Shown one piece after another: positions 414 to 26,800 of a stretch of 64,000 nucleotides of DNA. The notes beneath the pieces are model-generated. The model did no database searches. It worked only from the letters and a program-made list of their open reading frames with translations, and had not been told where the DNA came from. Source of the stretch: Lytechinus pictus (lineage: Eukaryota); NCBI RefSeq assembly GCF_037042905.1, contig NC_087245.1, positions 19,222,001-19,286,000 of the forward strand, read 5' to 3'. The position numbers and the translations under genes are program-made. Numbering within the stretch: the first letter of the stretch is position 1; every line of letters starts with the position of its first letter.

Positions 414-441
414 TATGGCGCGCCATTTGTTTCATAAAGGC

Positions 442-1377: not shown

Positions 1378-2727
1378 TCAGGGTTATTTACTGTAAGCCA
1401 GTAGTGGGCGCCATTCGACCCTGGACATGGAGAATATTGGAAGGCTCTAAGTTTGATTTTGAGTTTTTCCCCCCTTTTTACCGGACCGGAGAACAAGATA
1501 TGATTCTGTATATTTAATAGAAAAGATTATGAGCAAGATTCAAGAAATTAGCCAGCGACCTTATTTGTTGAGGGATAGGAATCCTAACGTTAACCAAATC
1601 TTCGTCGGTGACTCGAGCCGGTGCAATGAACAATGTGAGTGGGTCATACGGTACCAGCGCCTGAGCAGAGCAGCCCGGGGCGTCGTCGGGCGAAAGTTCG
1701 GTCGAAAACGTTGCTACAGCTACTGTCGGTGAGCCGAAACAGCCAAGCCGGAGTCCGCAGAATTGGTAAAGCCTATGGATAAGATTATAGAAAAACTAGA
1801 CCTACGGTACTGAATACTAAATATCACTACCATGAGAAAGGGTATGGCCATGGATGAATTTCGTTAGTCATTGACTGCAAGGGCAATGCTCGCCAAAAAA
1901 AGCTTAAGTTAAGACAGATCTGACACAAATAATTCTGGATCTATAACTTAGAGTTTCACGATAGAAAAATGAGCTTGCTCATATATGGCGTTGAGAAAAA
2001 AAAGATGAGAAAGTGCTACAGCTAGGTGGTGAGAAATGCGATTCAAGAGTTGGGTTTCTCAAAGCATTGACCTGTCAAAGGAAGAGTCAGAGACAGAGAA
2101 AATGTTCAAATACTAATGCCCACACGGCCACAGGTTGCCAAGCCCAAGAAGATCTACATGTACACATGGTCATGGAAGTGAGCAGAATGTCGGCCGTGGT
2201 CACGACCCAATCATAATGCATTTTGGGGCCATGATGGATTGAGATCGTGTTTTGACCTCATAGTCATATCAGCAAAAAAGCATGTTTACATTCAACGACC
2301 CGTGATTGTGAAGGCCAGACAGCCCCTCGTCATAGCGTCCATTTTGTTACGGATCTGCCAGCATCGCTCAAAAAGCGCTTCTTGTTCGAGCAACAGGTAT
2401 ATCGTTTGAGGAAAAGTGAGAACAAATCTACGAGCATCAGGCTTATTGGTACAAATCTCCAGCTACATAGTACATGTAGAGTACAAAGAGAAGGGATCAT
2501 CTTCACCATGGCATGCAGTGATTAATTGAGATAATTGGTCGATATTATCAGAATAATTCCATAACAAAGGATTACGAGAAAGTTTGACAGTGAAGTCTGC
2601 GATTCTCAAATTATTTATTATTTCACTCGTGTTCCTGTGATGAGAAAGAAAAGGAATCCACTTATTCATCTACAAAGTTATTTTACAAGAATAATCATCA
2701 AAATCATCAATACATTGTGTTTATCAA

Positions 2728-5230
2728 TAGGAGTGTGCTATAAATGGGTGATTTTTGGTTTTACTGTGCCAACAGTTTTTGTCTCGCCTGCATATAAAAC
2801 GAGACTATAGGCGCCGTTTTCCGATGGCGTCGGCGTCAACATCAAATCTTAACCCAAGGTTAAGTTTTTGAAATGACATAACTTCAAAAAGTATATGGAC
2901 CTAGTTCATGAAACTTGGACATAAGGTTAATCAAGTATTACTGAACATCCTGCCTGAGTATCAGGTCACATGACCAAGGTCAAAGGTCATTTAGGGTCAA
3001 TGAACTTTGGCAGGTTGGGGATATTTGTTGAATTACCATCATAACTTTGAAAATTTATGGATCTACAATGTAGTTCATGAAACTTGGGCATTAGGTTAAT
3101 CAAGTACCACCAAATATCCTGTGCGAGTTTCAGGTCACATGAACATGGTCAAAGGTCATTTAAGGCCAATGAACTTTGGCCGTGTTGGGGGGTATTTGTT
3201 GAATTACCATCCTAGCTCTGAAAGTTTATGGATCTAGTTCATAAAACTTGGGATATAAGAGTAATCAAGTATTACTGAACATCCCCTGTGAGTTTCAGGA
3301 CACAAAACTAAGGTCAAAAGTCAGTTTAAGGTCAATAAACTTAGGCCATGTTGGGGTAATTGTTGAATTGCCATCATTACTTTGAAAGCTTATGGATAGA
3401 GTGAATGAAATGTGGACATGGGTGTAGTTGACAAGTTTTATTCACCGTCCAAATGTCATTTATAGTCAATGAACGTGGTATAATGTCATTATATGAATGG
3501 TGTTTTTGTGAATGATTATTTTATAGTAGTTTTCAAAGTTAGCACTGCTGCTATATTAAATCGCGTAATGCAGGCTAGACTGCCAGAAGCACTCCACTTG
3601 TTTCGTATTCCTTTAACCTTATCTCAACATGAAATGACAATATTATTTGTCTCTGGTCACGGTGGTCCGAGAAAAAAGTGTGCCGGGCCCAAATCTAAAG
3701 TGGCCGCCAAAATCCCCCCAAATCACAGTTTTGGCCACAACTTCTTTCTTGGTGGTCATTTTATCTGGTTTTGGTGTCTATTCATGTTTTTTTGGGGGGC
3801 AGGCAATTTGTTTTTCCTAAAATTAGTTCTTTTAAACCATTATTTGTAAAGTTAAGAGGTGATTTAACTTAAATTTGCAAATTTTTTGACCCTTTTTTAA
3901 GCAAAATTAGGTTCCATCGTCTTGTGGTTCTTGGATATTAGATGACACCAGTTGACCAGTAGTAAGCAGCTTCATATAGCTATATTGCTTTTATTCCTCT
4001 AAATTGAGTTTAAGACGGATATTTGCGAAATACATCTTATCAAATAAGAAAATGTAATTTACGGTATCCATAGGGGTGGCACGGTGTACAATATATGGTA
4101 CATACTGTACACTGCATACATATCCATGCATTGACCACCATGGCATACAACTAGGACTTTATATATATACCAGTGGCATGCATGTAGTAGTGAGCTTCTG
4201 ATGTTTAGAATTAGATTGTGACTTGTGAATTTGATTGCTTGTTAGCTGATGAACATGATGTAACCCGATGATGAACATAAATTGCATGTAAACATCATGT
4301 AGTGTACGTACATACATGTACATCATATTTTCAGCCACATCTTCATTTGGCAGCTTGTTTTTACCTGGTATTCTAATCCTATATTATGGAGTCAGGTATA
4401 CCACATGTGGTAATGCTGGTCAATGGCTTTCAGGATTCCATGCAAGTTACCATTGGATGGCAAAGTTACCATAATCAGAAAGCCAGTGTAAGTGCCATAA
4501 TAGGGGGGGGGGTGACTTTAATCCATTGTTAAAGATATTTTCCTCCCCCCCCCCCCCCTGAATGAGCATAATTGACAAAATATGTCTTCAATCTGAGACA
4601 AAACATACAGTATCTTCAATTTCTCAATAAATCATTTAGTATCACACTATAGTTTATATACAGACCTTGTCATGATGGTCAATGCATGAATATACATGAA
4701 TGCAGTGTAGTATGTACAATACAATGTATACTGTATAGCCCCTATGGATAATACAATTTTTTTTTTCAATAATATATTTTTCGCAAATATCCGTAAAAAC
4801 CAAAGTAGAAGAATAAGAGCAAATAGCTATTTGAAATTATTTGCTATTATGGAACTGGTATCGTCCAATATCCAAGAACCACAAGAAACCTAATTTGGGG
4901 CTGAAAAGGGTATTGTATGTGTAAATGTAGGTAAAATCACCTTTTAACTCCAAAATTAATGGTTTTTAAGTAATCATTTCAGGTTAAACAAATTGCCTGC
5001 TCCCCCCCCCAAAAAAAACCCAACATATTATATGTGGGCAAAACTTTGATGGGGGGGGGGGGGGGGTTGGCAGCCATTTTGGATTTTGGCCTGGCACACT
5101 TTTTTCTCGGACCCGAGGCAAAAAATATTTGTCATTTCATGTTGAGATACATTACAAGGAATAGATCAAAACTGTTGCCATATTAAAATGTCAAAAAAAG
5201 TATTTTTGATCCATGTATAGCCCACTCCTA
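2728..5230. mobile_element. Non-autonomous DNA transposon with long diverged TIRs (TAG...CTA termini, Academ-like), interrupted by a HINE
   Basis: TAGGAGTGTGCTATAAATGG vs CCATGTATAGCCCACTCCTA. Inverted matches continue inward (3620-3690 vs 5090-5150; 3920-3950 vs 4855-4885; 4065 vs 4740). No clean TSD seen. Confidence 0.65.
2781..3600 (+). mobile_element. Helentron-associated non-autonomous element (HINE/DINE-1-like) with ~120-bp internal tandem repeats, copy 1
   Basis: 5' subTIR GTCTCGCCTGCAT, short GAGAC inverted repeat, GGC-rich linker, tandem units, then 3' subTIR ATGCAGGCTAGAC and end CCACTTG. Inserted in a T run without a TSD. Confidence 0.75.
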
Positions 5231-6797
5231 TGATCAAAGGGGTTTTGCTACTGAAGATTTTAAAGGCAAAGTTTTAAATGTTAAAGGAAACTTAGATGAT
5301 GAAAAATTGTCTGAGATTTTCTTATTTTTATGTCACGACCTGTCCTTTGGTAAATAGGAATTGTGTTGATATCTCAACATGTCTCTCTTTCGTTTAAGTT
5401 GAAACTGATAACTGACAATTTATATTTCATACATATTATTTAATTTTTGGTTTCTTACAAGAAACAAAAAATAAGGTATTGTTTTATGACTTTCATATGA
5501 AAGATCTGCCATTATCATAATATTACTACACATGTATTTGTTATTTACACGACTGTTTCCAAGTTGTTGGGGCTCCTGGCTGGTTCCATTATCAATTGGC
5601 CTCATGAAGATGAAAGTGGTTAGGGTATTTGAATGAAAATACATATAAATCAAGGATTTTGACAGGATACACTTTTCCAATAATTTTATGGTGCATATTA
5701 TTTATGTAGACATATGGTGCTATTCATTAAGCGGCTTAAACATGTACCATCGTTATCCTTGAGAAATTATGTTCAATGGAAAACAAATATTTCTCTTTTT
5801 TGCTTTTGTTATTGTTTCTGTGTTTCTCAGAGTAGTCAGGATAGTGATGTATGTCTTAAACAAATCCCCGAAGGATTGATGAAAAAAAAGCTGTACTTTA
5901 CAATACATTTTTGTTTGTAAAAGCATCATCCTTTTTGTAAGAACTCATACATCTGGTGTAAGGAAACATTAAGAGCTATAGCTTGATGTATGTAGCCACT
6001 TCTTCAATTATTTTGTTTGTGTTTATACTTTGATAATAACTAATCTATTCCAAGTCCATTGTGAATTGAACATCTTGGCCTATAGGGTATTATAGAGCTC
6101 AATACTGCCCTGGTTACTGTACATGATTGTATATTGTCTTTGTAGACGTTTTTTGATAAATACTAGGAAAAGCTATTAGGAGACTAGGAGTGGTTTTTTC
6201 TTTTGTTTTTGTTGTAAAGTTGTACTTTGTTATGTTTTCTTTCACAATTCATTGAATGCGAAGTTTTTGATGGAAAGTATGTGATTGGTCAGGATCAACA
6301 CTTCAAGAAAAAATCTATAGGTTTTTATTATCTATTGAGATACATGTTGGGTTCGTTTTATAACCATTGATTTGTAAAGATGTTCAGACAGAACTTAGAA
6401 AGTTTACAGAGAATTCATTTTAAAACCACTCCATGCTTTATTATCATTATTGTGTTTTTTTTTTCAGAGTGTGACTTGTTACTTATGGCAATGTTGTTTT
6501 TGTAAAACAAAAGAACAATTTGTTCTCTCATTTAAGTATTTTTTAAAGGAACAAAGCTAAAATAGAAGCTTGATATTATTTATCTTTTCTGTATAATGAC
6601 TCATTGCATTAATTTACACCTGGCATAAGAAGTAAATTTGAGATAATTTTGTCTCCACAGTGTCTTTTTTAATTCTCTATCTCTATCCTTAACTTGAGTT
6701 TTTTTAATACTGCCATGTATGCTTGTAGTGGCAATGTATATGTAGCTTCTAGTAAAACCTTTCAACATGTAACTTTTTGTGACTGAAAGTGATTTTT

Positions 6798-8147
6798 GTC
6801 TCACCTGCGAAGCATAGTGAGACCTTATGCGCCGCTTTTCCGACGGCGTCAACACCAAATCTTAACCGAAGTTTAAGTTTTTTAAATGACAGTATAACGT
6901 AGAAAGTATAAGGACCTAGTTCATTAAACTTTGCCATAAAGTTAATCAAGTATTGCTGAACATCCTGCTTGAATTTTGAGTCACATGACCAAGGTCAAAG
7001 GTCATTTAGGGTCAATAAACTTTGGCCAAATTGGGGGTATTTGTTGAATTACCATCATAACTTTAAAAGTTTATGGATCTGATTCATGAAACTTGGACAT
7101 AAGAGTAATCTTGTGCCACTACACATCCTGTGTGAATTTCAGGTCACATGATCAAGGTCAAAGGTCATTTAAGGTCAATGAACTTTGGCCAAATTGGGGT
7201 ATTTGTTGAATTACCATCATAACTTTGAATGTTTATTGGTCTGGTTCATAAAACTTGGACATAAGAGTAATCAAGTATCACTGAACATCCTGTGCGAATT
7301 TCAGGTCACATGACCAAGTTCAAAGGTCAATGAACTAAGGCCATAATCTATTGAATTACCATAATAACTTCGAAAGTTTTTGGATCTGATTCAAGAAACT
7401 TGGACATAAGAGTAATCATGTACCACTACACATCCTGTGCGAATTTCACGTCACATGACCAAAGTCAAAGGTCATTTAGGGTCAATAAACTTTGGCCAAA
7501 TTTGGGGTATTGTTGAATTACCATCATAACTTTGAAAGTTTTTTGGTCTAGTTCATAAAACTTGGACATAAGAGTAATCAAGTATCACTGAACATCCTGT
7601 GCAAATTTCAGGTCACATGACCAAGTTCAAAGGTTAATGAACTTAGGCCATAATCTATTGAATTACCATAACTTCTGAAGTTTTTGGATCTGTTTCAAGA
7701 AACTTAGACATAAGAGTAATCATGTACCACTACACATCCTGTGCGAATTTCACGTCACATGACCAAAGTCAAAGGTCATTTAGAGTCAATGAACTTTGGC
7801 CATATGGGGGTATCTGTTGAATTACCATCATAACTTTGAGAGCTTTATGGATCTGATTCATGAAACTTGGACATACATGTAAGAGTAACCAAATATCACT
7901 GAATGTCTTGTGTGAGGTACAGGTCACATGACCTCTCAAAGTTTATAGATATAGTGTATAAAATGTGGATATAGGGGTAATCAAGTATCTCTGACAAGTT
8001 TTAGATCACATGATCAAGGTCAAATGTCAATGAACGTAGTATTGTATCATTATACATGAATGGTGTTTTTGTGAATAATTATTTCATAGTATGTTTCAGA
8101 GTGTGAATCGTTTGATGCGAGTGAGACTGCCAGAGGCGCTCCACTTG
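6798..8147 (+). mobile_element. HINE/DINE-1-like element, copy 2 (about 9-10 internal ~120-bp repeats)
   Basis: Same ends (GTCTCACCTGC ... GTGAGACTGCCAGAGGCGCTCCACTTG) and same internal unit (GAAACTTGGACATAAGAGTAATC...GGTCACATGACCAAGGTCAAAGGTCA). Confidence 0.8.
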
Positions 8148-8738
8148 TTTTTTCATGGAATGATTACCAAGATATTGACTGATTATGTTGATTTATTAAT
8201 AATTTATTGAAAAATATGAATGTTTGATTGATCACATTACACATTGATTATGAGTAGACTTATTGATAAATTGTTTAATAAATGATTGATATGTAAAACT
8301 TGATGCACCACTCCCGATTTTCATTATTTATCATTAAATCAACATTGTGCTCTTGACTTTCTTACGCACATGTAATAGCAATCTGTCTGTCAACAGGAGG
8401 GGAGGGAGGGGGCTAAATGTTCTCTTAACCCTTATTCCATCAACCTAATTCTCCCACTAAGTGCCATCTCACTCCCTATTATCCCGACCCCCATGAAGAT
8501 CCACATGATAAAGTTAAAATGCTGCCCAGAAAAGTACAATTTGTGTTCACTCATGCATTGAAGTTCAATTTAATAATTTATGAAATTTACTTGAACAACC
8601 AAACTGGTCATGATTGATCATTAATTCATCACAACACCCTTAATTTTTCAGGTTTCAATTAAAGGATTTGCCTCTCAGAACTGGCAGAAATTGTAAGGCT
8701 AATTCATGCCCAGCCTTATTTTCATACCCTTTCTTTAA

Positions 8739-9303
8739 AGAACAAGTCCATCCCAACAAATAGTGGATTGAATAAAAAGAGAAATATCAAACAAGTATAA
8801 CACTGAAAATTTCATCAAAATCGGATGTAAAAAAAGAAAGTTTTGACATTTTAAATCTTTGCTTAATTTCACAAAACAGTTATGCACATGCTGGTCAGTA
8901 TGCAAATGAGGAGACTGATGACATAATCCACTCACTATTTCTTTTGTATTTTATTATGTGAAATATGGAATATTCTATTTTTCTCCTCTTTGTCAAGTGA
9001 AACAACGATTAATTCCTCCCTGAACATGTAGAATTAGCATTATTTAATACTATATTGTTCAGACATGTTGGTCCTTATTGTCAAATCTATAAAAAAATAA
9101 AATATTGTATAATTCAAACAATATAAAACAAAAGAAATAGTGAGGGGCATCATCGGCCGTCTCATTTGAGTTGTGCATAACACTGTGTTGTGAAAAATAA
9201 GCAAAACTTTAAAATGTCATAACTTTCTTATTTTACATCCGATTTTGATGAAATCTTCAGCGTTTAGCAAGTTTGATTTTTCTCTATTTACTCAAATCAA
9301 CAT
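8739..9303. mobile_element. Kolobok-type MITE (TTAA target), right end lost
   Basis: TTAA|AGAACAAGTCCATCCCAAC start with an internally inverted arm. Same family as 20658-21213 and 51650-51850. Confidence 0.7.
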
Positions 9304-10049
9304 AGTGGGGAGTGCTCGCTAAACACTTATGGGTGTCTTTGAAGGTTGACTTTATTGGCTATCCCCCCCCCCCCCCAAAGTGATATATTTTTTTGTTTGG
9401 CAGCCATTTCAAAAGTATATAGTTTTTTTTTGGACGCACTGACTGTACAGGAGCTTCCATCAAATAGATATTACTATTGTATCAATGTCAGGGTCGTATG
9501 TAGGGGGTGCAAAAAGGGAAAAGGGGCGCGGATAAAGAAATTGAAAAAAATGAAAAGGTAAAAGAATAACAGTGCTGAAAAGGGATACCTCTTGTTATTA
9601 CCATGGTAATGTAGTTTCCAACACATTTAGGAAATTAATCTTGCATGTCTTTATGCAGGGATGAATATTCATGCCACTTTTTGATTGATGTTAATCATAC
9701 TAATTCTCTAAAAATTCCAACAAACAGAAATATTCCTTTTTTAACGCAAATCTTGCTGCCGGTTTGCATTTTGATATTTTACTTTTCATTAATTCTCACA
9801 AATAGTTCTGAAATACATTATTCTCTGGTTCTATTGTCAAAGCTTTTCAATACGCGCTGATTTGATAAGGGAGATATAAATCATCTTCATAGATTTCTAC
9901 TAGTAATCATTGAAATGTCCTTTTTGGGTGAGAATATAATATAAAGTCAAGTCATATAAAATATAATCTCAAGCATGGTAAAAAATAATATGACATATAC
10001 TTAGTACTACATGTAGTTTCTATGTATGAAATCACAGATGAAATAATCG

Positions 10050-10850
10050 TGAAGATGATGATCAAGATGTGGTGATGAGGATAATGATGTGGGTGAAGAT
10101 GATAATTATAGACTGGTGATGGTGATGAGGTGGGTGGTGATGATGAGGATAGTGATAGTAATGGTGTCGATGATGGTGATGATGAAGCCATATGAAACAT
10201 AAATAATAAGAGAAAGAAAAGAGAGAAGATTTTCAGTATTATGTCAGAATCTATCAAAACGTAAAATTATGTAATAAAAATATAGAAAAGTTTGCTTGCT
10301 CACAATTAAAAAAAAAAAATACTGGCACAATCTGCCATATCTTGTCCCTCTCAAAATCTTTGGCTCATTACGCCAATGATAATTTATTTGGTGGTGATAA
10401 TGAAAGTAATTATATTAATAATGATGGTGATTATGATGGTCATGATAGTGACGATGATCATGATGGTGTGGTGATGGCAATGATATTGATGAAGTTGATG
10501 ATGATCACTCCCTTTTCATCTCCAACCATTTTCACATCTCCAGCTTTCATCTCAATCCTTCCTCTCATCTCTAACCTCTCCTCATGTCAACCCTTCCACA
10601 TCGTTTCCATCCACCTCATCTCCCTGCTCGTCTCTTGTAACCCACTCATCTCTAAACTTTATCATCTCCATCCCTCCCACATCATCTCCATCCATCCTTG
10701 CATCATCCCCATTCCTCCTCTCATCATCTCCATCCACTCGTCGTCCCCACCCTTAACTCCATCACTCATCATCATGGCCATCCCACCTTTCATCATCTCC
10801 ACCACCCCCCCCCCCCCCCCATTTAATCTTCATCTCTCCAATCATTTCCA
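10050..10850. repeat. Degenerate (GAT)n / (CAT,CCT)n low-complexity tracts
   Basis: GATGATGGT-type runs at 10050-10190 and 10395-10505, then a CATC/CCT-rich run. These explain the spurious ORFs 9952-10257 and 10342-10866. Confidence 0.8.
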
Positions 10851-10861
10851 TCTGATTACCA

Positions 10862-11025
10862 GGTGACCCAACATTTGCTCCTGCGATAATTGCCCCAGGA
10901 TTAATTCTGTCTTCGAGGGTCAGGGTTGCAATAGGGTTTCATGGTAGGTTTATAGGGGTTGAAGCTGAATAGTGTGTGGAATTTACAGCGGAGCAATTGT
11001 CGCCAGAGCAAATGTCATGGAACTC
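10862..11025. mobile_element. Short MITE with ACATTTGCTC...GAGCAAATGT inverted ends
   Basis: ACATTTGCTCCTGCGATAATTGC vs GCAATTGTCGCCAGAGCAAATGT. A related remnant lies at ~54930-55062. Confidence 0.55.
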
Positions 11026-11255
11026 ATTACCACATCTCTCATTAAAGGTTGAATATTAAGCGGGATAAAGAATACTTCATAGTGAAATAACCCAATATTC
11101 AAAATACTTCTTTGGAGTAAAGTGGTTTTATTAAGTAACAATAAGATAAACTTAATCAGATGTACAGTTACATTGTAACACATATTGAACTGAGGTGTAT
11201 ATAAAATACATGTATATTATATCCCACAAAAATCAAATCCTGGTTCAAAACTTAA

Positions 11256-11832
11256 AGGGATGGTCCGGGCTGAAAATATTTATATCTTAATACATAGAGT
11301 ATAATTCACTGAGCAAAATGCCGAAAATTTCATCAAAATCGGATAACAAATAATAAAGTTATTGAAGTTTAAAGTTTAGCAATATTTTGTGAAAAAAGTT
11401 GTCATGAATATTCATTAGGTGGGCTGATGATGTCACATCTCCACTTTCTGTTGTCTTATGTTATTACATAAAATCATATTTTTTTCATTATTTCATACTT
11501 GTCTGAATGTCCCCCTTATAATGAAATAAGTTGCAGCAATAAATATTTAATGCACTATTCAGTTGACAATCCAATTTTTCTAGTTCTTGGAGGAAAAAAA
11601 ATTGAATAAACCTAATTTCATATAATAAAATACAAAAGAACAAGTGGAGATGTGACATCATCAGCCCACCCAATGAATATTCATGACGACTGTTTTCACA
11701 AAATATTGCTAAACTTCAAAATTCAATAACTTTGTTATTTGTTATCCGATTTTGATGAAATTTTCTGCATTTTGCTCAGTGAATTCTACTCTATTTATTA
11801 AGCTACACATACTTTCAGCCCAGGCCATCCCC
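11256..11832. mobile_element. Kolobok-type palindromic MITE
   Basis: TTAA|AGGGATGGTCCGGGCTGAA ... TTCAGCCCAGGCCATCCCC|TTAG, with ~200-bp inverted arms. Confidence 0.8.
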
Positions 11833-12384
11833 TTAGATAGCATTACATTACCAGATACATTATTATGATGATGAATATGACAATAGCATAGTAATATCAT
11901 AATTCCAGTTGGGAACAATATCCTCTGTTTTGGTGTCTATGTAAAGCTAACAATAAGGACAATCTTAAAATTACAATAGTGGCCAATTCAATTAACATTT
12001 ATCAAACAATTGCACTTTGTTTCAGGAATATACATCCTGTTATAAATTACTAAATTCATATTTGGTTACCATGTCAATTACATAAACCCCAACTTACCTG
12101 GAGGGATTTTCAGCCATCCCTCATCATTGTTTGTCATAAACAAAAACTGGCCATACAGGGTTTGCGATTCAGGCGGCCTCAAAATAGTTGGAATGATAAG
12201 AATGATATAGAGTACTGACAATATTATAGCGATATCAAATATTTTGAAGCTCTGCAGTCTGCACCTCTTTTGCTACTGAAACAAATCAAACCATTTCAAT
12301 CTTCACTTTGTCTTCAATTTAGAAGCAAATAATTTTTTTAAATATATTAAAGTTAAGATAATTGCAACTCATTCAATCTTAACA

Positions 12385-12834
12385 TGAAAGTTCACTTGGA
12401 CAAAACAAGTCTGCTATGCAGGTGAGACAAAAAAATTGGTGAAGGTTTGAGGAAAATCTGTTAAATATTAAAAAATGTATTAGAATTCTAAGCTTAGCCT
12501 TTGGATTTGTGGCGTCACACACACGAGCAGCTGCCAAATAAAGTTATGTAATATAAAATGCATGAATTTCATTTTTTAATGGTTCCAGAGGACATATTTT
12601 TGTTATTTTGTGTTTTCTTTTCATGTTTGGGTGTAAAATGATTGGTCCTTTGATATAGAAAAAAAAAATTCATTATGTAGAAATGCTGCCCGAATATGAC
12701 GTTACAACTCAAATAATTGAAATTCAAATAACTTTTTAATTCTTTGATGGATTTTCCTCAAAACTTAGGCAATATTTTTATTATTTTTTTCTTCTGTTTT
12801 AACAATAAACTTTTTGTCAGCGTGAACTTCCCCT
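12385..12834. mobile_element. Diverged Kolobok-type MITE
   Basis: AAGTTCACTTGGACAAAA vs TTTTGTCAGCGTGAACTTCCCT|TTAA. Confidence 0.55.
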
Positions 12835-12902
12835 TTAAACCCACTTGAACGATACTTGGTATCATTTGGAAGATTTATAAAACAGATATTACACATGAAT
12901 TA

Positions 12903-13482
12903 AACCTAAATAGACTGGGCTATTTCGATGCCTAAGAAGACTGTGGGGGGGGGGGCTGATTCAGCCCCCCTCCTTATGATCTCGGCCGTTGATCGCGACG
13001 AAACTTGGCACCCGCGTTACCAATGGCATAATATACAAAACTACAGGATCAAACTCTGTGAAAAATCTCATTGCTAATTAATTATGCTAATTTATGCATG
13101 AAATCAGAATTTTGCTTTAATTAACTAAATAATGCCCCTAAAATGCTAATTTTTGGTACACAGACACTTTATATTAATCTGTTCAAATGTACTAACAAAA
13201 AATTTCAAAATCACATTAATTTTTTCATGTATTTAACTGTTTTCAAAATTTCTTATGTATTTCTTTGTTTTTTATTGTTTTTTCAATGGAAATTGTCGGG
13301 GACTTTATTTGGACCATAAATAAGATGGAATTAATTGATTTCAATCAGTAAATGGAAAAATTATACATTTATGAATTTCGGCTAAGAACTCTATTTGCAT
13401 TGGATTTGTACACAAATTTACGTTTTTGTGCAATTTTGGGTCTGCATGCACTTATGAAATGATGCGTAATTTTGGAACCCCC
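12903..13482. mobile_element. Truncated piggyBac-like non-autonomous element (same family as 57069-58627, opposite orientation)
   Basis: ACCTAAATAGACTGGGCTATTTCG is the reverse complement of the 58600-58628 end. Internal segments match 57230-57600 in inverted orientation. Confidence 0.65.
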
Positions 13483-13798
13483 CGTATCCAAAATATCCGT
13501 GAGTAGATGTCTGGGGGGGGGGGGGGGGGTAAATGTCCAGGGGGTAGATGTCCGGGGGCTAGATGTCCGGGGGGTAAATGTCCGGGGGGTAAATGTCCGG
13601 GGGTAAATGTCCGGGGGTAGATGTCCGGGGGGTAAATGTCCGGGGGTAATTGTCCGGGGGGTAGATGTCCGGGGGGTAAATGTTCAGGGGTAGATGTCCT
13701 AGGGGGTAGATGTCCTAAGGGGGTGGATGTCCGGGGGGTGGATGTCCGGGTGGTGGATGTCCGGGGGGTGGATGCCCAGGGGTAGATGTTCGGATACG
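13483..13798. repeat. G-rich 13-16-bp tandem array (GGGGGTARATGTCC)n bounded by CGTATCC...GGATACG inverted ends (foldback-like MITE)
   Basis: About 20 units seen directly, with short terminal inverted repeats at 13483 and 13798. Confidence 0.8.
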
Positions 13799-14990
13799 AT
13801 ACAATATATATATTAAAAAAGTTAATTTTTCATTCAATTCGATTGTTCTTTCTTTCTTTTAAAGAATTTGGAAATACATGTACCAAAAATAAGAGTTGAA
13901 CTTTGATATACCTGCATGAACTGCATAAAAAATTATTTATTGTATCTATGAAGCTGTATTACCTCATCGATCAAAGGACTGCCCAAGTCATTGGAATTCG
14001 GTACTCTTTCTTTTAATGAAAGAAATGGAAAATCCGTCTTGTTGAATATGAAACCTCTTCTCGTCCATGGTGTAGGTTGGTACCAGCCCAAGTGCTTGTA
14101 TCCTCCAGGAGACCCGTTGTTTACAACTTTTAAATGGAAGTTTCATTAAAGCTGCGACAGTAACAAGTAAACAAATGAGAGACGTGTTTTTTATATCGAA
14201 AAGCAAGTTTTTAGATTTTGATAAGGCAAGTTAAGTTTTTCAATTTTAGTAGAATACATTTCTTTTTTCAATGACATATTCTTTCATATTGAGAAACTAA
14301 GTGTTTCAATTTTGATTATAATCATGATTACATTCTATGTCAGTTGTGCATCCCCATCCTGCTCCTACAAACTTAGAAAACACTAAAAATTTGTAATTAT
14401 GTATACGAACAAAAATAAACAATGAAGACAATTTCCTACAAAACTGTAAACTTCATCATGATAACGTCAATACTGAGAATTGTTCACCCCTGTGCATTTT
14501 GTGTATTTTTTGTAGCCTTGCACAATTTGCAGATATGACCCATATGCCCCTATAAAACATACCTTTGTTAAGTCAGGTGGCTTGTTGACGAAAAGGAACT
14601 ATTACGGATGGCAAATTCCTCTTGGGATTGTATAAGTACAACAATCAACTGAGCTGGCCTCCGAAGAACCAATGTAACTGTGTTTATTCAATCTAGGAGG
14701 TTAAAAGAAAAAGAGGGAAAAAACATCCTCAGTTTCATGACCATAAATATATCACTGAAATTGTAGTTTACATAACTTTCTATATCATCATGAACCTACA
14801 TGTAATGCATATTTGACTCTACAGTCTGAATTAAATGGACTTGACAAATAAATTGAATATTGTTGGTAAAAATAATCTTCTATGTCTGAACAGGTGTCTG
14901 CAGCAGTTAATAAATGATGCATATTTGTTGCATTAAACTCTGCCAAAGACAAATCTAAACGTCTGAAAGAACACTAATGTTTGCATTTCA

Positions 14991-15184
14991 ACTGGGCGTT
15001 GTGGCGTGCGCCTGTAATCCAAGCTACATGTACGTGGGGAAGTTACAATTTGATGCAGAAGTTCGAGGTTCGAATCCTGGTCACGTCTTTCGGATGGTGA
15101 CGTTAAAGGTCGGTCCCAGACGTAAATAATCATATCTGATTGATACACGTCTGACAAAACTCAAATACACACACACACACACAC
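14991..15184 (+). mobile_element. SINE with 7SL/Alu-domain-like head, B-box, Deu/Nin-domain-like segment and (CA)n tail, copy 1
   Basis: Head ACTGGGCGTTGTGGCGTGCGCCTGTAATCCAAGCTAC, B-box GGTTCGAATCC, body GTCTTTCGGATGGTGACGTTAAAGGTCGGTCCC, (CA)n tail. Confidence 0.7.
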
Positions 15185-15186
15185 TA

Positions 15187-15371
15187 ACTGGGCGTTGTGG
15201 CGTGCGCCTGTAATCCAAGCTATGTGAGGAAGTTACAAATTGATGCAGAGGTTCGAGGTTCGAGCCCTGGTCACGTCTTTTGGATGGTGATGTTAAAGGT
15301 CGGTCCCAGACGTAAATAATCATATCTGATTGATACACGTCTGACAAAAACTCAAATACACACACACACAC
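15187..15371 (+). mobile_element. Same 7SL-headed SINE, copy 2 (head-to-tail with copy 1)
   Basis: Near-identical to copy 1 apart from a few substitutions and small indels. B-box GGTTCGAGCCC, (CA)n tail. Confidence 0.7.
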
Positions 15372-15541
15372 TATCTGTGCAGTTTCCACATATAAAAACA
15401 AAACATTCTAATGCTAGGTGCATAATTTATCCTTTTTCTGAAATAATTGTTTTTCCTAATTTTGGAAATCCTTTTCTCTCACAAAACCTTACTTTTGGTT
15501 AAAACAATATCTGCTATCAAAAATATCAACTAATTCAAATA

Positions 15542-16644
15542 GTCACTCTCAATGGGACGGTTCGCCGATGAATATTCATTAGATTGTGGTCGTGTGCACG
15601 TGTGTGTGTACAATACCGAGTGTAAAAAACAAAGAAAGTTTTCAAATGGTGTGTGTGTGTATAACACAACGCAGGAGTTTATTTTACAGAGAATGAGTAG
15701 TATAGTGCAGAAAATTAAAGTGTACAATGAAGTTTTACAGAGGAGGAAATAATATAAATACATATGGAAGACAATGCAAGATGAGGTGAGGCAAGTACAG
15801 TGATTTTTTTTTCTCAAAAGTATTAGTAGTAGAGGAAATCATGGGGAAAAAATATATTATAGAGGACAATGTAACATGAGATGAGGCAAGTCTGCAATGA
15901 GGTTTTTTTTTCAAAGGAGGAGATAATACAAATATATATCTAGAGGACAATGTAAGATGAGATGAGGCAATTAAGTGTACAGTGAGGTTTTAACAAAGAA
16001 TGTATAACTAGGATAAGATAAAAAGAGGACAATGTAAGATGAGCTGTGGTAAGTGTACAGTGAGGTTTTTTCAAAAGAGGAGATGATAAAAAAATACCGG
16101 TATGTAGAGGACAATGTAAGATGAGGCACGTGTACATTGAGGTTTTATCAAATAATGTATAATGATGATGTAGACTGTAGAGGACAATGTAAGATGAGCT
16201 CTCACTGTACACTTGCCTTGAGCCCTTGATCATCTCATCTTACATTGTCCTCCATATTTGTATTATCTCCTCTTGAAAAAACCCTCACTGCACACAAGTT
16301 TGCCTTATCTCATCTTACATTGTCCTCAATAATATATTTGTATTATTTCCTCTACTAATACTTTTGAAAAAACAACATCACTGTACTTGCCTTACCTCAT
16401 CTTGCACTGTCCTCCATATATTTATATTATTTCCTCTTCTGTAAAACTTCATTGTACGCTTTTATTTTCTGCACTATACTACTCATTCTCTGTTAAATAA
16501 ACTCCTATCCCTACGTTGTTTTATACACACTCACCATTTGAAAACTCTCGTTATTTACACTCGGTATAGTATACACACACACACACACACCCATGCACGT
16601 GATCCAATGAATATTCATCGGCGAACCGTCCCATTGAGAGTGAC
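15542..16644. mobile_element. ~1.1-kb near-palindromic foldback/MITE with internal GAGGACAATGTAAGATGAG repeats
   Basis: GTCACTCTCAATGGGACGGTTCGCCGATGAATATTCATT is exactly inverted at 16606-16644. The arms run ~400 bp toward a centre near 16200. Confidence 0.85.
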
Positions 16645-17004
16645 GTAGGAGCTGGACATTTCATCGCCCTTTGTTGTCATCAAAAGTGGCTACCAGAAAA
16701 TACAAGCATTGAACCTAGCCGCTTGTAATGGGCACTTAATACATGCGTTAAAACTTTCACTTGACTCGTGCACTTTCCGTTCCAAATTTTCACATTTGTA
16801 TGTTACATATATATAGATCCTATTTATCTCATACTTTACTCACTTTCTTGGTGGAAAGTACCATGACTCAGAAAGTCAGGAATGAAACATAATGGTGTAA
16901 TTTGCCTGAAAAACTACAGCGAAACAGCTAAAATCATGCCTGCTGCACATGCCTGCTGGCCTGAAGCAGGCCTGGGCCCAGGAGTCCAAAGTGCATTTAA
17001 ACAT

Positions 17005-17485
17005 AGACATGGGACTAGGGTAGATTGTGGTCTCAATAACAAAATAAACAGAAATTATGCACTTACCATGATTATATGGATGAAGCCAGGTCAATCGTGT
17101 GGCAGTATCCTGACATCGAGGTACAGACTGGAATCTCAAAAAAACGAAAAGTTATCTCCTGCTACCCCAGTCTCGATCAGCCATTTTGTTATGAATTTTG
17201 AAAAAAATTAGGAGATGTATCACGAGGTATTCTGTCCCGTGAGTATGGGTAAATACACGGTGAGCTCTGACCTGGGACTCACTGGGAGAACTTCTCGTTT
17301 TTTTGAGGTTCCAACTTCCAGTCCGTGCCTCGATGTCAGGATACTACATGTACCACTCGATAGACCTTCATCCATCGTGGTAAGTGCATAATTTCTGTTT
17401 TCACAATTTATCTTGCTAGATTAATAGATATAGCGAACATAATCTACCCTTGTCCTGTGAGTATGGGTAAATACACGGTGAGCTC
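17005..17485. mobile_element. Diverged inverted-repeat element (MITE remnant)
   Basis: 17047-17160 is inverted at 17284-17401. A 33-bp direct repeat GTCC(C/T)GTGAGTATGGGTAAATACACGGTGAGCTC occurs at ~17234 and ~17452. Confidence 0.6.
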
Positions 17486-18180
17486 CTGGGCGCCGGCCCG
17501 CGAAGCATGCCGGCGCTCCCGGGCCTGGGTATGATCAATGATTGATACTTTCACTGTGTTGAAAATGAAATACATCTTCCGTGCTTTTTTCTTCTTGCTG
17601 TGCTGGATAACCTCAATGGTAACACTTAACAGGCACTCGCGCTCATGCCTAAGTTACAACATTAGCATCGAGTCACCATGGACAAAAGTTCTTCTTACTT
17701 AGGTCTTAGCTATCAATATCATACTCAAAGCAGCAGAATCGTAATCGTACCCAGGCAGCAGGGAGAATCCACACCGCGGCCGGGCAGCTTCGCGGGTGTG
17801 GGCTCTCTGCCTCTGGGTTAGCAACCAAGCGGCACGGAAAGCATCGAACCATCATCTTCTCCGTTGTTCTCCCCCGATATTCGGGGCAGGGATCAGCGGT
17901 ATCCGCTGCTCAGGTTGGGGTGTCAGGTTTGTTAACACCATGAAAGCCGACAACCATGGCTGCCGTTGTATTATAAAAAAATATATAATTGGAACTTACC
18001 TTGGCTTTAGTTTCAGTTATCCAGCAGTACAGTTGGCGTTGATGAATTTGACGTCCAAAACTAACTTCAGACGTGGTAAAAGTGGTAAAATACTGTGTTT
18101 CTTGTAATAATCGCAATGGCAGCTTTGTTTGCCGTGTAAATGCATGCAGTACGTGCGCGCGCGCGCCCGCTCACAAATTC

Positions 18181-19012
18181 GATAAACTGAGTTTTTCAAT
18201 TTCGATAAACTAGGTTTTTCAATTCGAAAAACTTAGTTTATCGAAATCGAAAAACCTAGTTTATCGGCGAAAAACTAAGTTTATCGGCGATAAACTAGGT
18301 TTTTCGATTCGATAAACTTAGTTTTTCGATTTCGATAAACTAGGTTTTTCAATTCGAAAAACTTAGTTTATCGAAATTGAAAAACCTAGTTTATCGGCGA
18401 AAAACCTAGTTTATCGCCTTTATGAGACAAATGGCGTTCTTAGAAAAACTCAGTTTATCACTTGAAAAACCTAGTTTATCGCCTTTATGGGACAAATGGC
18501 GTTCTTAGAAAAACTCAGTTTATCAGATTCGAAAAACTTAGTTTATCAGAATTGAAAAACTAAGTTTATCACTTGAAAAACCTAGTTTTTCGCCGATAAA
18601 CTAAGTTTATCACTTGAAAAACTCAGTTTATCTAGAAAAACTCAGTTTATCAGTCGAAAAACTAAGTTTTTCAAGAAACTCTGCTTTTCACTTGAAAAAC
18701 CTAGTTTTTCATTGAAAAACTTAGTTTTTCATTGAAAAACTTAGTTTATCGGTGAAAAACTTAGTTTTTCGCCGATAAACTTAGTTTTTCAATTGATAAA
18801 CTAGGTTTATCAAAAAAACCTAGTTTTTCAATTGAAAATCTAAGTTTTTCGGCGATAAACTTAGTTTTTCTTGATAAACTTAGTTTTTCAAGTGATAAAC
18901 TTAGTTTATCGGCGAAAAACTAAGTTTATCGGCGAAAAACTTAGTTTTTCAATTGAAAAACTAGGTTTTTCGATTGATAAACTAGGTTTTTCGGCGATAA
19001 ACTGAGTTTATC
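18181..19012. repeat. Right terminal array of the same 17-bp palindromes
   Basis: Roughly 38 units, with internal terminus-like motifs CGCCTTTATG(A/G)GACAAATGGCGTTCTTA ending at 18442 and 18507. Confidence 0.95.
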
Positions 19013-19040
19013 GCCTTTATGAAACAGATGGCGCGCCATA

Positions 19041-21772
19041 CACGTCCGCAACATCAGTCCAGTCTTCAAGTCCCAACTTCACTTCAAATCGAGGACACAA
19101 TGTTGCAGTATTTTCAAAGCACTGATAGTCATGGTGACAACATAACTGTAGATAAATTTTTCTCCAGCTTGTCCCCCATTGTCCCACACTGTAAAAGTTA
19201 CCTCAATGCCAGCTCCATTGCTATGAGGTTAAATTTCGGTCGTCTGAACATTGAACATACTACTATAGGAATTAAAGTTTTTGTGTCATCTAACTCCAAG
19301 TCGATTCTTATTGATGTTATAAACATATCACAATTTAAGAATCCAAATATGTTTCGTAGATTAAAAAAAAAGTTAACGGAAAATGCTCTATAACTTGCTA
19401 TGCTCCACCGCTAAAAAGAGAGCTGATATCTTATTCCCTCTGACCATGGAGCTAATAGCTCTATGCTCCGACATCACTCAATACTCTTTCGATTGTAACA
19501 TAAAAGATGCAATGTCAGTTATGCAGCATCACCAACAAATTAAAAGCGGTGTATATATGATTACATCTGAATTACTTATGATAAATCCATATGAAATAAA
19601 TCATTTGCAGGAAATCTACAACTTTAATGACTGATATCGTATTATAAACAACGACACCATTAAATGTGTTATTCTAATTTCCACTTGAATTTTTCACTTT
19701 GACATCTCCATAGGCAGCGGAAGCGGGGACAGGTCCCCCCCCCCCCCCTAAATTTTTAGTTGATAAATTTTTTTTTTATTTTTTGGCTTCCACCGCCAAT
19801 GTACATCTCCCATTGTTACAGTTGCAAGTCAGTCTCAATTTGCAGAAATTACGATTGTGAAGGATTATGATCTTCCTCTTTTGTAGATCTGGAAAATATC
19901 GTCTGAGCATGTTCACCATTTATTAAAAATATATTTATTTCTTAAATTATACTTGAATTTAAATTCAGGATTTGTTCACAGATAAGAGAAGTTGAGCATT
20001 TTGCACATCACAGAAATTTGGTTCATGCAAATACATGTATTAACATGATCACTAGTAATGCACTATCAAATATCAATACATGAAACCAGTTACTGTGAAA
20101 ATAAAAATGATGGGTACTGGACGGAACGTTTCTGGACTAATGTTTTATTTTGGAAACAGAGATCTAGGATTGTTTGAAATATGACAAAATGTTCGAAACA
20201 AAATTTCATCTCTAAACAGAATGGCAATGACACTCCTGTTGCCTGTTTCATAGAGAGGTACAACTATCATAACTTTGTCTTTAATATGGCGCAACATCCA
20301 ATTATAATTGTGGTTTCCATGGTAGTTGCCATAATGTTAAAGTACTTTTGAAATGGGCCCCTGGACATGAAGAATACTGACAAAAGAAAGTTGATTGTGA
20401 AATAAAAAGAATACATTCATCTTCAAGAAATTTTTTGACGCCCCATGCATTTTTTGTTGTTTATATATCTCGTATTATTTTTTTCTGTAATAAATTAATG
20501 AGCATCACTTTTTTTTCAACAACAAATATAATGTAGATTGCTGAAGAACCTAAAATATATTTGGAGCTGAACTAAACTCAAAATAAAGATGTCGACAAAA
20601 TGAAGTCCAGTGTTGCTCTTATTTATTGGGCCAGACCTCACTTGGCATTGCTTTTAAAAAACAAGTCCACCCCAACAAAAAAGTTGATTTGAATAAAAGA
20701 GAAATATCCAACAAGCATAACACTGAAAATATCATCAAATTCAGATGTAAAATAAGAAAGTTATGACATTTTAAAGTTTCGCTTAATTTTCACAAAACAG
20801 TTATATACACATCCTGATCGGTATGCAAATGAGGAGACTGATAACGTCATTCGCTCACTATTTATTTTGTATTTTATTTATATGAATATGAAATGTAATT
20901 TTCTTCTCATTGTCAAGAGAAACAACAATTAATTCCTCCCTGAACATGTAGAATTAGCATTGGTTTAATCAAGTTGGTCATTATTGTCAAATAAATGAAA
21001 TATTGTATTTTTCAAACAATAAAAAAAAAGAAATAGTAAGGGACATCAACTGTCTCATTTACATATCACTGAGGTGTGCATATCACTCTTTTGTGAAAAT
21101 AAGCGAAACTTTAAAATGTCATAACTTTCTTATATCCGATTCTGCATGAATCATGCTAGTTTGACTTTTTTCTATTTATTCAAATTAACAGTTTTCTTGG
21201 GTGGATTTGACCTTTAAACAAATAATATACCGTATTCAAATATGTTCAGAAATAATTTCGTATAACCAATTTAACTAATAGAAACAGAGAGAATAGAAGA
21301 ATCAAGAAAAGTGGAAGAACTAAGGGTGAAAGGTGACCAATGAGCACGAGGTCATGAATGAAGAAGAATGTTCTGAATATAAATGAGAAGACAATAGAAA
21401 CATGTGGAGTTGTAATGGCATTAGAATCTGATATATAAACTAAGGAGTAAGGAATGAGATAAACTAAGGATTGAGATGAACAGGTGACAATGGCATAGAA
21501 ATGGGAAGTGAAGTATGGAAAGCAAAGTGTAAAATAAAAAGATTAATCATGACAAAATTCAATTACATTTAAATAGAACGATCAATTCCCGTATAGATAT
21601 GAGTGAATAACAAAGAATACTTGTGTCTGTCCAATGAGCAGTCCGTCAGATTGATGCTTCTTGGTGGAATTCAAGACAAGATTAATTTATACATAGGACA
21701 TAGATACACGAAAATCCTTAAAAATTACTTCTTGCCACGCCTGAAGCAGGCTTCTTTGCCTTGGGTTTTCAT
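19041..21772 (-). CDS. Putative small spliced ORF (97 aa before the insertion) of unknown identity; last exon split by the 18.6-kb transposon
   Basis: Exons 21772-21729, 21659-21621, 19888-19853 and 19188-19041, continuing at 407-381. All introns are GT-AG phase 2, giving MKTQGKEACFRRGKKSINLTDCSLDRHKSTKEEDHNPSQSVGQWGTSWRKIYLQLCCHHDYQCFENTATLCPRFEVKLGLEDWTDVADV|PEDDDEED*. No family recognised. Confidence 0.35.
19709..19801. mobile_element. Tiny hAT-like MITE
   Basis: CATAGGCAGCGGAAGC...GCTTCCACCGCCAATG with 8-bp TSD GACATCTC/TACATCTC (1 mismatch). Confidence 0.65.
20658..21213. mobile_element. Kolobok-type MITE, full length
   Basis: TTAA at 20654-20657 and 21214-21217. CAAGTCCACCC...GGGTGGATTTG TIR. 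Homologous to 8739-9303. Confidence 0.8.
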
Positions 21773-23845: not shown

Positions 23846-26800
23846 ATGCCAGTGGCAGTGCCCAGGAGATCCTCCTCTAATGTTCAACACAAGACAAACC
23901 ATTTTGGGATTGAGGTGGTCAAAGGGTTGACTTGGAAAGGTTGGGAGCCAGGTGGTGAATACACCAAGAATGTCATCTTAAAGAATGTACAGGTCAAGAC
24001 ACAGAAATTGAAATTCAGGTGAGAAAGGGGAGAAAGTGGGGGTTCAGCATTGTTTTATAGCTTTTAAATCATTTTATTTTCTGTAACTGTAATTTTCAGA
24101 TGTTTTAAATCTCCATATTTTCTTTTGCAACATCTTAGCTATCTAGAGCAACTCATAAGTTTTGGTTCATCCTCTGAAAAGTGGATGTCACTGTTCAATT
24201 TATTAACATATGAATGCACATTTCCGTTTAAGTTTTATGGTGTGGATGGTTAGGAATAGAAACATGATTTAGGGGGTTCAATTTATGATTTTACAATTAT
24301 TAAAAAGGGCAATTTTTGTGAATTTGGTTGGGATCCCTAACAAAATAAGGTTTAATTGCATTTTTTTTTATATAGGAAATATAATGTACATGTATGTATA
24401 AATATGAGAAATAGCACCTGACAATGAACCCAATCAAATTGAATGGGAAAGGACAAAGGGAAAAAGAAGATTGAATTCCGTCTCATTCAGAGATCATCCA
24501 GGCACATACGATTATTGTGTTACCAACATGTAGGCACAAATGCAGCATGTGCAACACATATGACCTTGGGATGGTTCAAAATTTAACTCGTCAAATTTCG
24601 TGAAAATTTCAAAAGTATTGATCAAATTTATTTTAGAGAATTGAAGACTCATCGTTACATGTAAGTTTGACAGTCTTTCAAAATTACCTGCTAAAGATTC
24701 TTGTGATCAATCCTATCAGAATTTAAAAAAATTGTTTTTGAAAAAATTGTTTCTCTTCAGCTCTCCAAACACCAGATTCTTTTCCACCCTCTACCCTGAG
24801 CCTATAGTGCTGAGTGCAGGGACCAGTTACAGTCTACCTGTTACATTCAGACCCCTTGAGAAGAACATCTATGTGGATAAGATTGAATTCCAAGCACAGG
24901 TATGGTAAATTGCATCATTTTTAAATAGTGATGATGATGATGATAGTAATGATGATGATGATGATGACTATTGATTTATTATTAATGTAAGAATACACAC
25001 TTCATGCAAAGCAATATCAAATATTATGTTTCTTAAATGCAATTTTAAGATACAAGTTATGATTTTCTGTATTTAGTCACATGATGATTTTTAATGACTG
25101 TTTAAGGATAAATTATTTGTGATTTTCCAGTAGTGGGTCAGTAGAGATTCAGCATATTCTGTAATGTTGCTTTTAGTTGTTCTTATCCCTATTTTCTTGA
25201 TGGAAGGGTGTGGTTATTACATGGGTGTGTGGGAATGATATTATTCTCATATTTTTTTCTTCACAAACATGAAAATAAACTCCTCTTTTCTTGATATTCA
25301 TTTTGGCATCATATGGCATCCTAGCTTCATTTTACATTACAGAATTAATACCGTAATCCATGTTTTTGTTTTCAGGATGGAGTATTTCAGGTACCCATGC
25401 AAGCTGTGCTTCCAAAGCATGAACTCTCCCTACCCAACCATCTTAACTTTGGCATGTGTGCCACAAAGGACTTCACCAAACTGACATTTGAGCTCTCAAA
25501 CACAAGGTACAGTAAGCAATCATTTACAATGGAACACTGAATAGTTAGAAAATATATCTAATCCAATGTGTGTTGTTTTTAGCAAGTGCATCTTTTGTTT
25601 TCTATCAGTTACATACTTTAAAATTAAACGTGTTAGTTACTCATTTAACCCAGGCATACAAGCAATGGTGTTTAATACCATAAATATGAAATGATTCAGT
25701 TCCAAAGATTGTTTTTCATTGGAACATCAAAACATTTTCATATTTGCTGGTGCTTTTCATAAAAACAATTGTAAGATTATTAATTTGGACCATTTAATAT
25801 TAGATTCATTTTGGTTTCAGAGCTGGACATTCCACTCATCATGCTATCTTAGATTTTTTAATGAATGTGTCTAAAGCAATTGAAAACAAAGAGATTATTA
25901 TTGGACTGTTCTTAGACTTTAAAAAAGCATTTGACTCCATAAATCACAAAATACTTTAAAAAAAACTTTCTCATTATGGAATCCGTGGTGTTACTTTAAA
26001 TTTATTTCACAGTTATTTGAGTGACCGTAAACAATTTACAATGTTCAATTCTATAAACTCTAATTATCAAACTGTTTCTTGCGGTATTCCGCAAGGATCA
26101 ATCCTCGGTCCCATACTTTTTTTGATTTACATCAATGATTTAAATTCAGTATCTCCACTATTAAATTGTTTGTTATTTGCAGACGACACCAATATATTTT
26201 ATAAACACAGTGATGTGGAATGTCTTACTCAAAACTTTAATTCTGAACTTTCAAAGGTTAGCAAATGGGTTGAAGCGAATAAATTACAACTTAATTATGA
26301 AAAGACCCATGTAATGCTGTTCAATGCTCCGAAAAATAGTGCAAAAGAAGTAAATATAAATATTAATGGCAACTTAATTCAACATGTAAATACTACACAA
26401 TTTTTAGGAATTAGTATAGACAAGGATTTAAAATGGAAGACACATGTTTATGAGGTTTTAAGGAAAGTTTCCAAAACAATAGGAATAATGAGTAAACTTA
26501 AAGACATTTTACCACAAAATATTCTTCTTACATTGTATAATTCATTGATTTTACCTTACATATCTTATTGCAATATTGTTTGGGGATCCTGCAAGCATCA
26601 CTTACTGAACCGCATCATTCTTCTTCAAAAGAGAGCAGTTCGTATAATATGCCATAAACCCTTTCTAAGTCATAGCAGACCTCTTTTCTTGAAATTAAAT
26701 ATACTCCCAATTTCTTTACTACATGATTTTCAATTATCTGTTTTTATGTATTCCTATTATAACAACCTTTTGCCTAATAATTTTGACAACATTTTTCAAA

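Follow-up and report, generated by a model that had tools for sequence, protein, structure and literature searches.

SINEs derived from 7SL RNA are known, in the portions of the 2020-2026 literature cited here, from three independent origins, in supraprimates, hagfish, and shrew mole, all of them vertebrate, and the elements described there keep both ends of the Alu domain (PMC7245038, PMC10886601, PMC13023118). Alu, FLAM, B1, and Tu of supraprimates and Urop of the shrew mole carry the 7SL 5' Alu domain, with its A-box, at their 5' end; their 7SL 5' and 3' parts are joined across a deletion of ~183 nt, and they have a poly(A) end and L1 as partner (PMC13023118). Tu and GarnAlu also combine tRNA and 7SL sequence, but the Alu monomers in them are complete (PMC7245038). 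The hagfish element SINE1-1_EBu, or Ebu1-1, is likewise an independent 7SL-headed chimera, young, with a few thousand copies at most, a microsatellite tail, and a non-L1 partner (Kojima 2020, PMC7245038). It keeps 7SL nt 1-96 plus the 7SL 3' end (140 nt), takes both promoter boxes from 7SL, and has a bipartite RTE tail and target site duplications (TSDs) of ~17 bp (PMC7245038).

Two further systems are relevant: (i) the engineered minimal Alu domain SA46/AY46 (Moldovan et al., PMC11760393), in which 46 nt of the 5' Alu domain are enough for SRP9/14 binding and, without a B-box, for one round of retrotransposition in HeLa cells, the constructs being promoterless and relying on poly(A) and L1; and (ii) the DeuSINEs (AmnSINE1, EbuSINE1, SINE2-3_SP), which have tRNA or 5S heads and Deu/Nin domains of 70-330 nt (PMC4824008). 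SINE2-3_SP, which we compared by description, is a sea urchin Deu SINE with a CR1 partner (PMC3747384).

Here we describe a sea urchin element that is a young 7SL-headed SINE with a build of its own, probably the first such SINE in an invertebrate. In contrast to Ebu1-1, it keeps 47 nt of 7SL, to which are joined a foreign B-box, a Deu-like remnant, a stem-loop, and a (CA)n tail, and its TSDs are short or absent. Unlike Alu, B1, and Urop, it has no 7SL 3' part and no poly(A). Its 7SL piece is the same 46-47 nt as in SA46/AY46, but here the piece occurs in nature, joined to a B-box of other origin, in an element that has multiplied and is predicted to bind SRP9/14. It differs from the DeuSINEs in its 7SL head and in a Deu-like stretch of about 33 nt. 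A literature search, with Repbase/Dfam, subscription journals, and bioRxiv supplements outside its scope, returned no echinoderm 7SL-derived SINE. An 'Alu' was reportedly noted in amphioxus in 2006; no such element is listed in the 2020-2026 papers on 7SL SINEs cited here.

The window (the whole 64,000-nt stretch analysed) contains, at 14991-15371, two tandem SINE units of ~185-195 nt on the plus strand. Sequence and alignment thus bear out the head-to-tail pair of the preliminary description and place the starts of its units at 14991 and 15187. Copy A (14991-15186; profile E 5e-62) is full length and includes its (CA)n tail and a few bases duplicated before copy B, which is also full length by alignment and profile (15187-15371). 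The two are 8 substitutions apart. The head of copy A (14991-15043) corresponds to the 7SL 5' Alu domain (7SL nt 1-45), holds the A-box, and has a 6-nt insertion in its second loop that, among five aligned copies, is seen solely here; the head of copy B (15187-15233) is a 47-nt 7SL 5' Alu domain. Each head is followed by a B-box (15067-15077 in copy A, within a segment resembling a tRNA T arm that was scored by alignment; 15257-15267 in copy B, read from the sequence) and by a Deu/Nin-like remnant (15084-15116 and 15274-15306, the latter with two C-to-T changes). A 3' stem-loop, likely the LINE recognition element, lies at 15117-15153 and, with the same letters, at 15307-15343, where it has a predicted energy of -13 kcal/mol (z -6.1; 0/200 shuffles as stable). 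The (CA)n tail of copy B spans 15358-15371.

The features that had been listed for the pair (a GGCG..CGCC helix, UGUA, complementary loops, the B-box, a Deu-like motif, and the (CA)n tail) are all present in the sequence. The Rfam check that had been suggested agrees: in a 4.5-kb scan both heads match Metazoa_SRP (E 6.8e-5 and 1.2e-5), with scores of 29-32 bits, under the 70-bit gathering score because the head alone matches the model. ARAGORN found no tRNA gene in the window.

We then asked how far the 7SL likeness extends and from which gene it might come. Seven full 7SL genes (272-283 bits) are present in the host genome, and against them the head gives local scores of 63-67 (z 17-20). A tRNA origin of the head was rejected, as none of the 31 host tRNA sequences compared, all Lys or Thr, scored above 13. 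Nucleotides 1-47 of the SINE family majority align to nt 1-45 of the 7SL gene L037 with 41/47 columns identical, the first 31 nt without exception. The 7SL part had earlier been put at 37 nt; its 7SL identity stands, but it runs on to nt 47 and so closes the 5' Alu domain. L037 and the SINE have in common a U3-A pair in place of the C3-G pair of the other six 7SL genes. The closing helix thus stays intact, and a 7SL paralogue resembling L037 is, from the sequence, the likely donor. Because the head carries sea-urchin-specific 7SL letters and the body differs from that of Alu, the independent origin proposed in the preliminary description holds. 'Alu-like', as the element had been called, fits the 5' domain but not the rest: by its head sequence it is a SINE1, with a build unlike Alu. 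We also observed a SINE copy ~33 nt upstream of the 7SL start at each of L031, L035, and L036, the three clustered genes on contig C10; these copies were evidently duplicated together with the gene.

The family is dispersed and young. Exact 20-mers from the head and the tail gave 930 and 1,058 matches, respectively (reversed controls, 0), and a DNA search gave 1,893 first-look candidates. From the exact head also being present at 18 of 30 tail loci we estimate about 1,550 copies; a total based on flank density (6 matches in 252 kb) was dropped as biased by clustering. The 66 flank-distinct full-length matches have one uniform chimeric structure, unlike a plain 7SL retrocopy, as is expected of a SINE1 with a 7SL-derived head. 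Their median divergence from the majority is 1.7%, and six are without substitution. The 7SL head begins 26 of the 30 tail loci, and the other four are 5'-truncated. Several 5'-truncated copies (L081, L084, L087, L093, L097, and L099) start near the same point, the beginning of the Deu-like hairpin, a structure that may stall reverse transcription.

With 14 tandem or CA-preceded copies set aside, 52 solo copies were left, of which 10 have TSDs of at least 5 bp; in 500 shuffles the mean number was 1.4 and the maximum 5. The proposed TSD check thus succeeded above chance for a minority, the other 42 having no duplication. CA directly precedes 16 of the 52, against a background of 6%. SINEBase defines a SINE as an interspersed element of <1 kb with at least 100 copies, in which a stretch of 60 nt or more is 60% or more identical to 7SL, tRNA, or 5S (PMC3531059). 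The sea urchin element is ~185 nt long and interspersed in at least 100 copies, with a fixed 3' end, 5' truncation, TSDs, and a simple-repeat tail; a forced alignment to 7SL gives, nominally, 47/63 identical columns, but the real signal spans 47 nt (41/47).

We are fairly confident that these observations describe a young sea urchin SINE with a head from host 7SL and a B-box, Deu-like remnant, stem-loop, and (CA)n tail from elsewhere, likely working through Pol III, SRP9/14, and a LINE. In the first step, Pol III would read the A-box of the 7SL head together with the borrowed B-box, then run on into the flank. Both elements of an internal Pol III promoter are present (an A-box in the 7SL head and B-boxes at 15067 and 15257), and transcription from them is highly likely. 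The majority sequence has no T4 run; one occurs in 4/66 copies, and that at 15278 of copy B is a likely early Pol III stop.

At the 3' end, the stem-loop is followed by the (CA)n tail, which varies in length, and there is no poly(A). A LINE ORF2p would take the stem-loop and prime at CA-like targets. It is very probable that a LINE, of whatever clade, drives target-primed reverse transcription of the element through the stem-loop, perhaps in the style of CR1/L2. Few or short target duplications and CA-like targets fit a stringent LINE of the CR1/L2 type. The search for a LINE with the same tail, which had been proposed as a check, came back empty for both sets of loci inspected: none was indicated by the 61 tail matches preceded by unrelated sequence, of which 30 were inspected and had no same-strand open frame longer than 147 aa, and the tail was absent from 30 reverse transcriptase (RT) loci (6 clusters; from 150 scored among 12,239 candidates), for several of which the 1.5 kb covered reached barely past the stop codon.

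Between transcription and insertion, the head would fold as the 5' Alu domain, bind SRP9/14, and carry the RNA to ribosomes on which LINE protein is being made, in the manner of Alu. By this analogy, we lean slightly toward SRP9/14 binding that places the RNA at LINE-translating ribosomes. It is also conceivable, though we think it rather unlikely, that the head serves as A-box and start site only, with the Alu fold a passenger, SRP9/14 idle, and a stringent LINE reading the 3' stem-loop. We examined pairing in 65 copies (99 full-length matches, reduced to 66 flank-distinct ones, with one duplicate dropped). UGUA and all tested pairs (the closing helix except for its terminal pair, helix 3, helix 4, and two loop-loop pairs) are kept in 53 of them. 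Helices followed the Rfam structure line for Metazoa_SRP; for the loop-loop pairs we applied to the SINE heads a presumed numbering, for which a search of papers gave no source. The second loop has 9-11 nt or more in the SINE (17 in copy A), versus 8-9 in host 7SL.

Several results suit a head that acts as promoter alone. In so young a family, the head could be conserved without selection. No new two-sided (compensatory) pair change was found among the 65 copies, and the lone compensatory pair is also present in L037, so it may be inherited. Energy folding of the head did not support a three-way junction: z was about 0, and the predicted fold lacks the closing helix. For the 7SL gene L031, too, the helix is missing and the junction is not favoured. 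Nucleotides 43-50 are absent from 3 of 66 copies, and the 3' stem-loop is strong. Against this, the 7SL match stops where the domain does, far past the A-box, and the recurrent subfamily variation of the head falls outside the helices, toward the 3' side of the second loop (16% departure from the majority at nt 35-41, 1.4% at nt 2-34). Departure is 1.05% in the 3' stem-loop and 2.1-4.6% in most other segments; the sampling of copies by best score or exact motif inflates the conservation of head and tail. Moreover, an old copy that is 70% identical (described below) indicates that the head has been retained for long.

The remainder of the body raises the question of where the second promoter box came from. 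SINE nt 54-84, which contain the B-box, look like a tRNA variable loop plus T arm, with a score of 32 against the 3' half of tRNA-Lys (0/200 shuffles as good; Lys and Thr tRNAs sampled). In the 24 nt after this segment, 21 columns agree with the beginning of the Deu domain in AmnSINE1, by eye count against Fig. S4 of PMC7245038; in copy A these fall within 15084-15116. The Deu-like stretch of ~33 nt is far shorter than the known domains of 70-330 nt (PMC4824008) and is therefore best called a remnant. The Deu/Nin resemblance claimed in the preliminary description thus survives for the start of the domain, as a short remnant alone. We consider it probable that the element was born when the 5' end of 7SL replaced the tRNA 5' half of a tRNA-headed Deu/Nin SINE. 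The earlier proposal of a 7SL head grafted onto a tRNA/Nin SINE is right in that the element is a chimera, but the tRNA 3' half and the 7SL 3' flank (below) tie as B-box donors, and no tRNA-headed parent was seen. A pattern allowing variants of the Deu motif gave 65 matches, with no evident tRNA head in the 30 inspected; a search combining a tRNA A-box with the Deu motif gave one match, unrelated; and Rfam returned nothing for five odd loci from the parent search.

The B-box segment might instead come from the 7SL locus itself, by a DNA-level deletion that fused 7SL nt 1-45 to the 3' flank. The 3' flank of the 7SL genes L035/L036 shares 25/33 aligned columns with SINE nt 54-84 (score 31, 0/500 shuffles), and a perfect tRNA-type B-box lies 21-45 nt past the last templated base, downstream of the terminator, in six of the seven host 7SL genes, with none within the gene. 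The core hexamer has a background of 0.009 per 60 nt, and the spacer to the box varies among the six genes (L031-L036), three of which form one cluster. By analogy, this downstream box is likely an extragenic promoter element. Yeast U6 has an extragenic downstream promoter element of this kind. We nevertheless regard the 7SL flank as a doubtful donor: the tRNA-Lys 3' half scores equally well (32), with just Lys and Thr tRNAs sampled; the B-box itself makes up much of either score; the 300 nt next to L037, which is the best match to the head among the 7SL genes, lack such a box; and the Deu remnant lies directly next to the segment, as in a tRNA-headed Deu SINE.

An origin of nt 1-90 wholly from 7SL, as in Alu, with a B-box that evolved in place or at a deletion joint, is very improbable. 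A forced global alignment does give 64-65 identities over 92-93 columns. Past nt 47, however, when each of three SINE segments was set against 7SL nt 46-120, 221-299, and 46-299 of three genes, no match was better than shuffles, which scored as well in 62-494 of 500 across the 27 comparisons, so this origin is largely refuted. The sequences compared show a 7SL match that stops at the edge of the 5' Alu domain, with other 7SL parts undetectable.

By its sequence, then, the element looks like the 46-nt minimal Alu domain as it might occur in nature, with a borrowed B-box added. We put forward only tentatively the full combination: the first non-vertebrate 7SL SINE and a natural 'mini-Alu', in which the minimal SRP9/14-binding 46-47 nt were kept, a B-box was grafted on, and ribosome-hitching would be coupled to a stringent non-L1 LINE. 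A fourth origin of 7SL SINEs, in an echinoderm and with a different build, bears on the rarity of 7SL as a SINE founder and on which part of it counts. The sea urchin SINE retains just the 5' domain, the piece found sufficient but promoterless in the constructs described in PMC11760393. In a tractable model animal, it would allow a test of whether a SINE gains from SRP9/14 binding when its LINE recognizes a 3' stem-loop and not poly(A). The about 1,500 young insertions would also serve as population markers.

The tandem arrangement, in contrast, is not a feature of the family. The pair lies inside an 18.6-kb DNA transposon (414-19040) with terminal inverted repeats and TA..TA ends, flanked by a 6-bp target duplication (408-413 and 19041-19046) and containing subterminal arrays of 20-22-nt repeats and nested repeats. 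TA ends occur in every copy of this carrier seen and 6-bp target duplications in five of seven. TA..TA termini and a 6-bp TSD are marks of IS3EU/GingerRoot elements (PMC10045372), and by its ends the carrier is IS3EU-like; none of its open frames is evidently a transposase by eye. There are at least ten carrier copies at 96-99% identity. The ten top pair loci, the window included, all have the same two flanks, and ten 10-kb stretches around pair sites are 96-99% identical to the window over up to 8.9 kb. Since these ten pair loci have their flanks in common and all lie within one kind of large transposon, the pair is a transposon passenger: the tandem arrangement is real, but it belongs to the carrier and not to the SINE family. 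One subfamily copy would have inserted at the (CA)n tail of another inside the carrier, and the transposon would then have spread both through the genome. A second insertion spread by the carrier is thus likelier than an Alu-style dimer.

That the pair is a dimeric SINE retrotransposing as one unit, as Alu does, is hardly credible. The same A-B pair at ten loci would suit such a dimer, but all ten share their flanks and transposon; one carrier copy (L040/L060, contig C5) has a single unit, A-type at 8/8 substitution sites with a B-type 3' end, which represents either the state before the insertion of B or a recombinational collapse of the pair; the other tandem arrays (L014, L020, L022, L078/L079) have unrelated flanks and a different make-up; and 52 of the 66 sampled copies were scored solo. 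Finally, one-off 7SL retrocopies or primate Alu contamination, suggested at most by a weak match of the heads to the Alu-derived miRNA model mir-1268 (E 0.019), are refuted by the uniform chimera in 66 flank-distinct full-length matches, by a head with host 7SL letters on a body unlike 7SL, and by copies on about 20 large contigs and within sea urchin introns.

The rest of the window includes the CFAP65 gene (23846-60103, plus strand), whose 35 exon matches cover nearly all of residues 1-1886. The exon at 28752-28901 is identical in 50/50 residues to a Lytechinus variegatus record and 90% identical to a Diadema record; together with the exon matches across the window, this makes the host a Lytechinus-like sea urchin and agrees with the invertebrate deuterostome host named in the preliminary description. 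The carrier ends 4.8 kb upstream of the first CFAP65 coding exon. A CFAP65 intron holds, in antisense, the old decayed copy of the SINE family mentioned above (48222-48359, minus strand). It matches the profile from 48359 to 48222 over model positions 13-159 (E 7.6e-6; 92 identities, 39 mismatches, 15 gap columns) and includes part of the 7SL head, which scored better than 2000/2000 shuffles. A relative of the 3' half had been noted at 48183-48293; the relationship is correct, but the copy is on the minus strand, spans 48359-48222, and takes in part of the head. When this copy was used as a query for an old subfamily, it alone was returned.

Another CFAP65 intron feature is a LINE 3' fragment (25960-27270, plus strand) with a 346-aa open frame for the C-terminal part of RT. 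We rejected the window RT fragment (25960-27000) as partner LINE, as it ends in another tail, of short AATTTC-type repeats. Elsewhere in the genome, a 1.7-kb tandem repeat (12 matches) at C18:3150292-3170667 includes a 5'-truncated SINE tail, and a dense one-strand array of tRNA genes, mostly Lys, lies at C4:9700711-9735957.
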